Below, piece after piece: positions 23,518 through 24,645 of a stretch of 64,000 nucleotides of DNA (positions are counted from its first letter, which is position 1; each line of letters begins with the position of its first letter). The position numbers were made by a program, and so were the translations under genes. The stretch is taken from assembly GCF_044324875.1 (NCBI RefSeq), contig NZ_CP172185.1; one strand, 5' to 3'. The DNA is from Escherichia coli (lineage in GTDB: Bacteria > Pseudomonadota > Gammaproteobacteria > Enterobacterales > Enterobacteriaceae). Under the pieces are notes generated by a model that was not told the DNA's origin, searched no databases, and was given only the letters and a program-made list of their open reading frames with translations.

Positions 23518-24645
23518 ATGAAAGTTAAAGTACTGTCCCTCCTGGTCCCAGCTCTGCTGGTAGCAGGCGCAGCAAACGCTGCTGAAGTTTACAACAAAGA
23601 CGGCAACAAATTAGATCTGTACGGTAAAGTAGACGGCCTGCACTATTTCTCTGACGACAAGTCTGTAGATGGCGACCAGACCTACATGCGTCTTGGCTTC
23701 AAAGGTGAAACTCAGGTTACTGACCAGCTGACCGGTTACGGCCAGTGGGAATATCAGATCCAGGGCAACGCTCCGGAAAGCGAAAACAACTCCTGGACCC
23801 GTGTGGCATTTGCTGGTCTGAAATTCCAGGACATCGGTTCTATCGACTATGGTCGTAACTACGGCGTAGTTTACGACGTAACTTCCTGGACCGACGTACT
23901 GCCAGAATTCGGTGGCGACACTTACGGTTCTGACAACTTTATGCAGCAGCGTGGTAACGGCTTCGCGACCTACCGTAACACTGACTTCTTCGGTCTGGTT
24001 GATGGCCTGAACTTTGCTGTTCAGTACCAGGGCCAGAATGGTAGCGTAAGCGGTGAAAGTGATCCGGATTTCACTGGCCATGGCATCACCAACAATGGTC
24101 GTAAAGCTCTGCGTCAGAACGGCGACGGCGTTGGCGGATCTATCACTTATGATTACGAAGGCTTTGGTATCGGTGGTGCGATCTCCAGCTCCAAACGTAC
24201 CTGGGATCAGAACAACACTGGTCTGATCGGTACTGGCGACCGTGCTGAAACCTACACTGGTGGTCTGAAATACGACGCTAACAACATCTACCTGGCTGCT
24301 CAGTACACCCAGACCTACAACGCAACTCGCGTAGGTTCCCTGGGTTGGGCGAACAAAGCACAGAACTTCGAAGCTGTTGCTCAGTACCAGTTCGACTTCG
24401 GTCTGCGTCCGTCTGTAGCCTACCTGCAGTCTAAAGGTAAAAACCTGGGTGTCATCAAAGGTCGTAACTACGACGACGAAGATATCCTGAAATATGTTGA
24501 TGTTGGTGCGACCTACTACTTCAACAAAAACATGTCCACCTACGTTGACTACAAAATCAACCTGCTGGACGACAACCGCTTCACCCGTGACGCTGGCATC
24601 AACACTGATGACATCGTAGCTCTGGGTCTGGTTTACCAGTTCTAA
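23518..24645 (+). CDS. ompC: Outer membrane porin OmpC (375-aa allele)
   Basis: Signal peptide [21 protein letters not shown]; porin beta-barrel with C-terminal LGLVYQF; strong codon bias. Confidence 0.97.

Follow-up and report, generated by a model that had tools for sequence, protein, structure and literature searches.

An Escherichia coli ompC allele with K-12-like pore residues, divergent surface loops and a probable mosaic origin

Introduction

The ompC gene studied here raises the question of how a porin that differs from that of K-12 acquired its differences, and whether these concern the pore, the expression of the gene or the face that the protein presents at the cell surface. An initial annotation of a 64,000-nucleotide stretch of E. 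coli DNA (the window) had reported an ompC gene of 375 codons at 23518-24645 and had contrasted it with K-12 OmpC, given as 367 aa long. We found the open reading frame at exactly these coordinates, together with all three of the peptides that had been quoted from its product, and the length given for K-12 is right according to MG1655 (NC_000913.3).

Very probably, this is a functional ompC with a K-12-like pore and regulation and with altered surface loops, which was built by recombination and whose spectrum of loop ligands is likely changed. Under this explanation, the chromosomal gene would encode a trimeric, 16-stranded general-diffusion porin that represents one of many natural allelic forms in E. 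coli. The cell-surface face differs from that of K-12 through a loop L4 with four more residues, a loop L5 with 7 of 15 residues replaced, a loop L7 with four more residues, and minor changes in each of L1, L2, and L8. Homologous recombination of modules circulating in the species would have assembled the allele, as opposed to point mutations in a gene like that of K-12. A likely consequence would be an altered set of OmpC-loop ligands, namely OmpC-dependent phages, class II CdiA toxins, and antibodies.

Identity and predicted structure of the porin

The gene is an uninterrupted ATG-to-TAA reading frame (Table 1). Its product scored 757 bits against the NCBIfam model for porin OmpC (NF007841; cut-off 484), matched the Pfam family Porin_1 (PF00267) from end to end with 469 bits, and matched the PDB entry 2XE1 with E = 2e-234. 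The protein terminates in YQF; the terminal Phe of OmpC has a role in outer-membrane assembly. As read from its sequence, the gene looks like an intact chromosomal ompC that is expected to be regulated normally, and its product is predicted to form OmpC trimers and to be expressed in the outer membrane, including at high osmolarity.

Table 1. Positions of features in the window, with the evidence for each or its comparison with K-12 (substitutions are written with the residue of the window first, in precursor numbering)
Feature	Position	Strand	Evidence or comparison
rcsD	20107..22779	-	Upstream neighbour of micF and ompC
micF sRNA gene	23091..23184	-	Rfam RF00033, 116.8 bits (gathering score 79); divergent from ompC as in K-12
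ompC promoter, OmpR-box region and 5'UTR	23339..23517	+	Base-for-base identical to K-12
ompC coding sequence (375 codons and stop; 354-aa mature porin)	23518..24645	+	ORF; NF007841; PF00267; match to 2XE1
Signal peptide, 21 aa	23518..23580	+	Same as K-12 in the alignment; solved mature chains begin at residue 22
L1			2 differing columns: D47N, S49D
L2			3 differing columns: A85S, P86A, S88N
Periplasmic turn T2			1 differing column: I106V
Strand β5			1 differing column: I109F
L3, constriction (eyelet) loop, mature 95-123	23863..23949	+	0 amino-acid changes against K-12, 5 synonymous
L4, mature 151-182	24031..24126	+	11 differing columns: 7 substitutions and 4 extra residues; type b2
L5, mature 206-220	24196..24240	+	7 substitutions among 15 residues; type a11 (CFT073 type)
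Strand β13			1 differing column: V300L
Putative intragenic recombination breakpoint (approximate), codons 299-300	24412..24417	+	Comparison with the P0003-type allele (loci L006-L008)
L7, mature 288-299	24442..24477	+	5 differing columns: 4 extra residues (VIKG) and G-to-N; type g (TA124 type)
L8			2 differing columns: R354Q, D365N
Intrinsic terminator-like hairpin and T-run after ompC	24664..24690	+	
tRNA gene	48064..48137	-	Rfam; ordinary for this chromosomal region
Ribosomal protein L25 leader	51853..51878	-	Rfam; ordinary for this chromosomal region

The structure was predicted with AlphaFold2 on a 64-sequence alignment of diverse full-length homologues, after a single-sequence run with a pLDDT of 29 had been discarded. 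The model reached a mean pLDDT of 93.6 and a pTM of 0.89, and it showed a β-barrel of 16 strands, whose loops are long on the extracellular side and whose turns are short on the periplasmic side, with L3 folded inside the lumen. Foldseek gave TM-scores of 0.96 to 2XE1 and 0.95/0.97 to 2J1N, the OmpC of K-12. The tip of L4 (mature residues 158-169) fell below a pLDDT of 50, which leaves the shape of the surface uncertain at this site.

The closest solved structure is 2XE1, the OmpC of uropathogenic O6:H1 / CFT073 (PMC3203869), which has the same fold and the same mature length of 354 residues. Nine of these residues differ (given with the window first and in mature numbering): I88F, S160N in L4 (type b2 against b1), I197V, G199A, and I201V in β9, I292V and K293A in L7 (type g against c), and R333Q and D337A in L8. 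The two proteins have an identical L5 (a11), and their L4 loops are of the same length and family.

Location of the differences from K-12

The window protein was aligned pairwise with the OmpC encoded at the MG1655 locus. Thirty-three columns differ, comprising 25 substitutions and 8 extra residues, by which K-12 OmpC is the shorter of the two; the extra residues are DPD and H in L4 and VIKG in L7. When the alignment was mapped onto the structural model, 30 of the 33 differences fell within the extracellular loops L1, L2, L4, L5, L7, and L8, as the initial annotation had proposed. Its quoted segments correspond to L4, L5, and L7; the smaller differences in L1, L2, and L8 had gone unmentioned. 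The loops account for 136 of the 354 residues in the mature protein, and the hypergeometric probability of such an enrichment is P = 7e-11, a value that overstates the significance, because the differences are clustered and not independent.

The barrel core and the termini had been described as matching canonical OmpC, which is nearly but not strictly the case, as I106V, I109F, and V300L lie outside the loops. All three are conservative, strands β5 and β13 hold just one difference each, and the third difference is in a periplasmic turn. Counting the signal peptide in, only 3 of 239 non-loop codons carry an amino-acid change, and the barrel is otherwise the same as in K-12. The amino-acid sequence of L6 is also unchanged; the signal peptide, L3, L6, the pore charges, the promoter, the 5'UTR, and the genomic neighbourhood are common to the window and K-12. 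We considered whether I109, which is F in K-12 and CFT073, might be an unusual change in the core and rejected this, as the same residue occurs in several common alleles and in an OmpC from E. albertii.

Loop types and occurrence of the allele

The exact protein (375/375 residues) is present in NCBI, UniRef, and ENA, where it is named “porin OmpC [Escherichia coli]”, for example under EHN86891.1 and EFO0624654.1, and an exact-sequence look-up returned 252 contigs on which it is recorded. Over the 7.1 kb around ompC, an assembly contig of GCA_027946735.1 matches the window with 100% identity, and the complete chromosome CP057479.1 has 2 base differences across the same 7.1 kb. An identical ompC gene was not found among 5,426 complete RefSeq E. 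coli genomes, where the best match was 99.7%. Taken alone, this would suggest that the allele is rare, a reading that we dropped in view of the 252 contigs and of public assemblies in which the gene and its flanks are 100% identical.

In a survey of 2,707 OmpC proteins of E. coli, more than 220 distinct sequences were found, with the variation concentrated in L4, L5, and L7 and with the loops shuffled in many combinations (Beck et al. 2016, PMC5056734). The per-loop catalogue of that study (S2 Table) lists L4-b2 for strain H299, L5-a11 for CFT073, and L7-g for TA124, and the L4, L5, and L7 of the window are exact string matches to b2, a11, and g. A mosaic evolution of ompC has also been described before (bioRxiv 10.1101/2021.09.21.461324; Beck et al. 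2016, PMC5056734). The allele is therefore an ordinary natural form of ompC, whose protein, loops, and mosaic mode of origin are already described, and the implication that it is noteworthy in itself is not supported, since its protein sequence and its types of L4, L5, and L7 had been catalogued. OmpC loop typing is useful for predicting phage host range, susceptibility to CDI, and the cross-reactivity of antibodies and diagnostics; this particular allele adds no new biology and has little import beyond routine annotation.

Evidence for a mosaic origin

Comparisons with named relatives bear on the way in which the allele was put together. The P0003-type allele (A0A1V2GL38), a common one that 317 blocks in the public collection of assemblies contain, is nucleotide-identical to the window over codons 1-298, including L1-L6. 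There are 0 mismatches over about 894-896 nt and then 12 mismatches in the 232 nt of codons 299-365, which places a putative recombination breakpoint near 24414. Beyond it, the P0003-type allele has L300, an L7 of type e (VING), Q354, and N365.

A second line of evidence comes from the WP_024216337.1 allele, which is carried by the complete genomes of N3, AST215, and other strains. It differs from the window gene by 3-4 nt and by 1 amino acid, with L5, L7, and I109 as in the window and with N181 in place of S181 (L4 b1 for b2), while the flanking chromosome in these genomes is 1-2% diverged from the window. In strain N3, for example, 3 differences occur in the approximately 1.75 kb of micF and ompC (22953..24707), compared with about 2% in the flanks (rcsD on one side and apbE-ada on the other). 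The near-identity of this segment points to a recombination tract that would span the whole micF-ompC unit, and the diverged flanks of N3 indicate that the allele sits on diverged chromosomal backgrounds.

The modules are common among the 5,426 complete genomes and the whole combination is rarer: at an identity of at least 99%, 137 genomes have the 5' module and 662 have the 3' module, but only 9 have the complete gene. In a comparison with a CFT073-like allele (locus L009), mismatches cluster at codons 204-222. At mature residues 197-201 in β9, the window protein is the same as K-12, whereas CFT073/2XE1 reads GFGVGAAVSS, and this region is a putative further small mosaic patch within ompC. 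Synonymous differences from K-12 affect 5/29 codons in L3 and 9/28 in L4, as compared to 12/239 in the core; such an excess in L3 and L4 is the pattern expected from the import of diverged DNA and not from point mutation alone.

The same observations can be read in another way, in which the differences in the loops came in with recombined DNA as neutral variation and do not affect recognition by phages, CDI systems, or antibodies. The recombination tracts with which the allele moves take in micF and non-coding DNA next to the gene, and the region around L3-L4 is also richer in codons with synonymous differences. As the import of a diverged segment explains this pattern, selection on this particular allele is not needed. 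We nevertheless hold this reading to be unlikely, since the same loops in other OmpC alleles switch recognition by CdiA-EC536, adsorption of T4, and binding of a monoclonal antibody, and since the exposed loops hold nearly all of the protein differences and the non-loop codons hardly any.

Surface recognition by phages, CdiA toxins, and antibodies

For phages, the OmpC of O157, which is 94% identical to that of K-12, cannot be used by T4, and a Phe substitution in L4 of OmpC abolishes T4 adsorption (both in PMC5221442, cited there as unpublished data). In addition, a phage tail fibre has been solved in a complex with the OmpC of EDL933 (PDB 9wcb). For antibodies, the O157-specific epitope of mAb 2G12 is the L7 peptide LGVING (PMC8426304), in place of which the L7 of the window reads LGVIKG.

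For CdiA toxins, recognition of OmpC by CdiA-EC536 is decided by L4 and L5, and the OmpC of CFT073 (b1/a11/c) goes unrecognised (PMC5056734). The b2/a11 combination of the window is one residue away from the b1/a11 of CFT073, and it is therefore predicted that the window protein should be a poor receptor for CdiA-EC536, on the assumption that neither the single exchange of N for S that separates L4 type b2 from b1 nor the differences in L7 and L8 matter. L7 and L8 were dispensable in CFT073/536 chimeras only (Beck et al. 2016, PMC5056734). By analogy with these systems, it is plausible that phages, CdiA toxins, and antibodies recognise the window OmpC differently.

A more far-reaching reading would be that the b2/a11/g combination, uncommon as a whole gene but made of two common halves, is spreading by recombination through unrelated backgrounds because it escapes a prevalent OmpC-dependent phage or CdiA. 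If true, this would amount to a recent selective sweep at the ompC locus; we regard it as quite improbable.

Pore properties, antibiotics, and colicins

The residues that line the pore argue for conserved transport. The charged residues of the eyelet (K16, R37, R74, R124, D18, D105, and E109) and the latch residue E66 of L2, a set given in Lou et al. 2011 (PMC3203869), are the same as in K-12, and so are R92 and G116. With the barrel, L3, and the pore charges as in K-12, the permeation of solutes and antibiotics should be K-12-like, as far as it can be predicted from these residues.

This bears directly on the possibility that the allele is an antibiotic-adaptive pore variant that lowers drug influx, like the clinical series from OmpC20 to OmpC33. 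The study of this series is the source of the closest solved structures, and the adaptive changes that it reports, D18E, S271F, and R124H, lie near the eyelet (PMC3203869). In the window protein, D18, R124, K16, R37, R74, D105, E109, and G116 are all kept and L3 is that of K-12. The unchanged eyelet, as judged from L3 and these eight residues, largely refutes such an adaptation, which we consider very improbable.

The unchanged pore also weakens an earlier suggestion that the allele may alter colicin susceptibility. OmpC is a poorer translocator of ColE9 than OmpF, and import proceeds through the porin lumen and the eyelet (PMC8561637), which are identical to K-12 here. Since colicins thread through the pore, an effect of the window allele on colicins would be unlikely.

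Genomic context and regulatory region

The gene order rcsD-micF-ompC-apbE(ftp)-ada-alkB is canonical, and the part from rcsD to ada is as in K-12. The chance that another porin paralogue (OmpF, PhoE, OmpN, or NmpC) or a non-functional remnant was mistaken for ompC is next to nil and can be dismissed: most complete genomes have at least two places that match the 3' end of ompC (median 2), which indicates that related porin genes exist in E. coli, but the protein scores far above the cut-off of the OmpC model and under those of the OmpF model (479.5 bits, cut-off 583) and the PhoE model (451.9, cut-off 599), the locus is the canonical one beside micF and rcsD, and the reading frame runs the full length, from an intact signal peptide to the YQF at the C-terminus.

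In the 738 bp on the 5' side of ompC there are 7 differences from K-12, none of which falls in the 179 bp that adjoin the start codon. This segment begins at 23339 with TTTACATTTTGAAACATCTA, which we take to be the OmpR C1 box of the ompC promoter. As the regulatory region is identical to that of K-12, expression and regulation of the functional ompC proposed here should be K-12-like.

A few minor observations were made in and around the locus. Just 5' of the presumed C1 box, the window has CT at 23336..23337 where K-12 has GC, and strain AST215 is unlike the window at 23336. The micF gene is the same as in K-12 outside position 23102, which lies in the terminator stem (23097..23119) and is G in the window and A in K-12 on the plus strand; through this change, a G·U pair in the hairpin of the terminator becomes G-C and the 10-bp stem is perfect. 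On the minus strand, an open reading frame of 364 aa (23611..24705) runs antisense across nearly all of ompC. It most likely arises mechanically from the strong codon bias in a highly expressed gene and is itself no gene. Two adjoining matches to naRNA4, a REP-type repeat, lie between the rcsC and rcsB reading frames (19240..19430), and these repeats probably explain the numerous scattered matches per genome that were obtained in the search with the 14-34 kb stretch.
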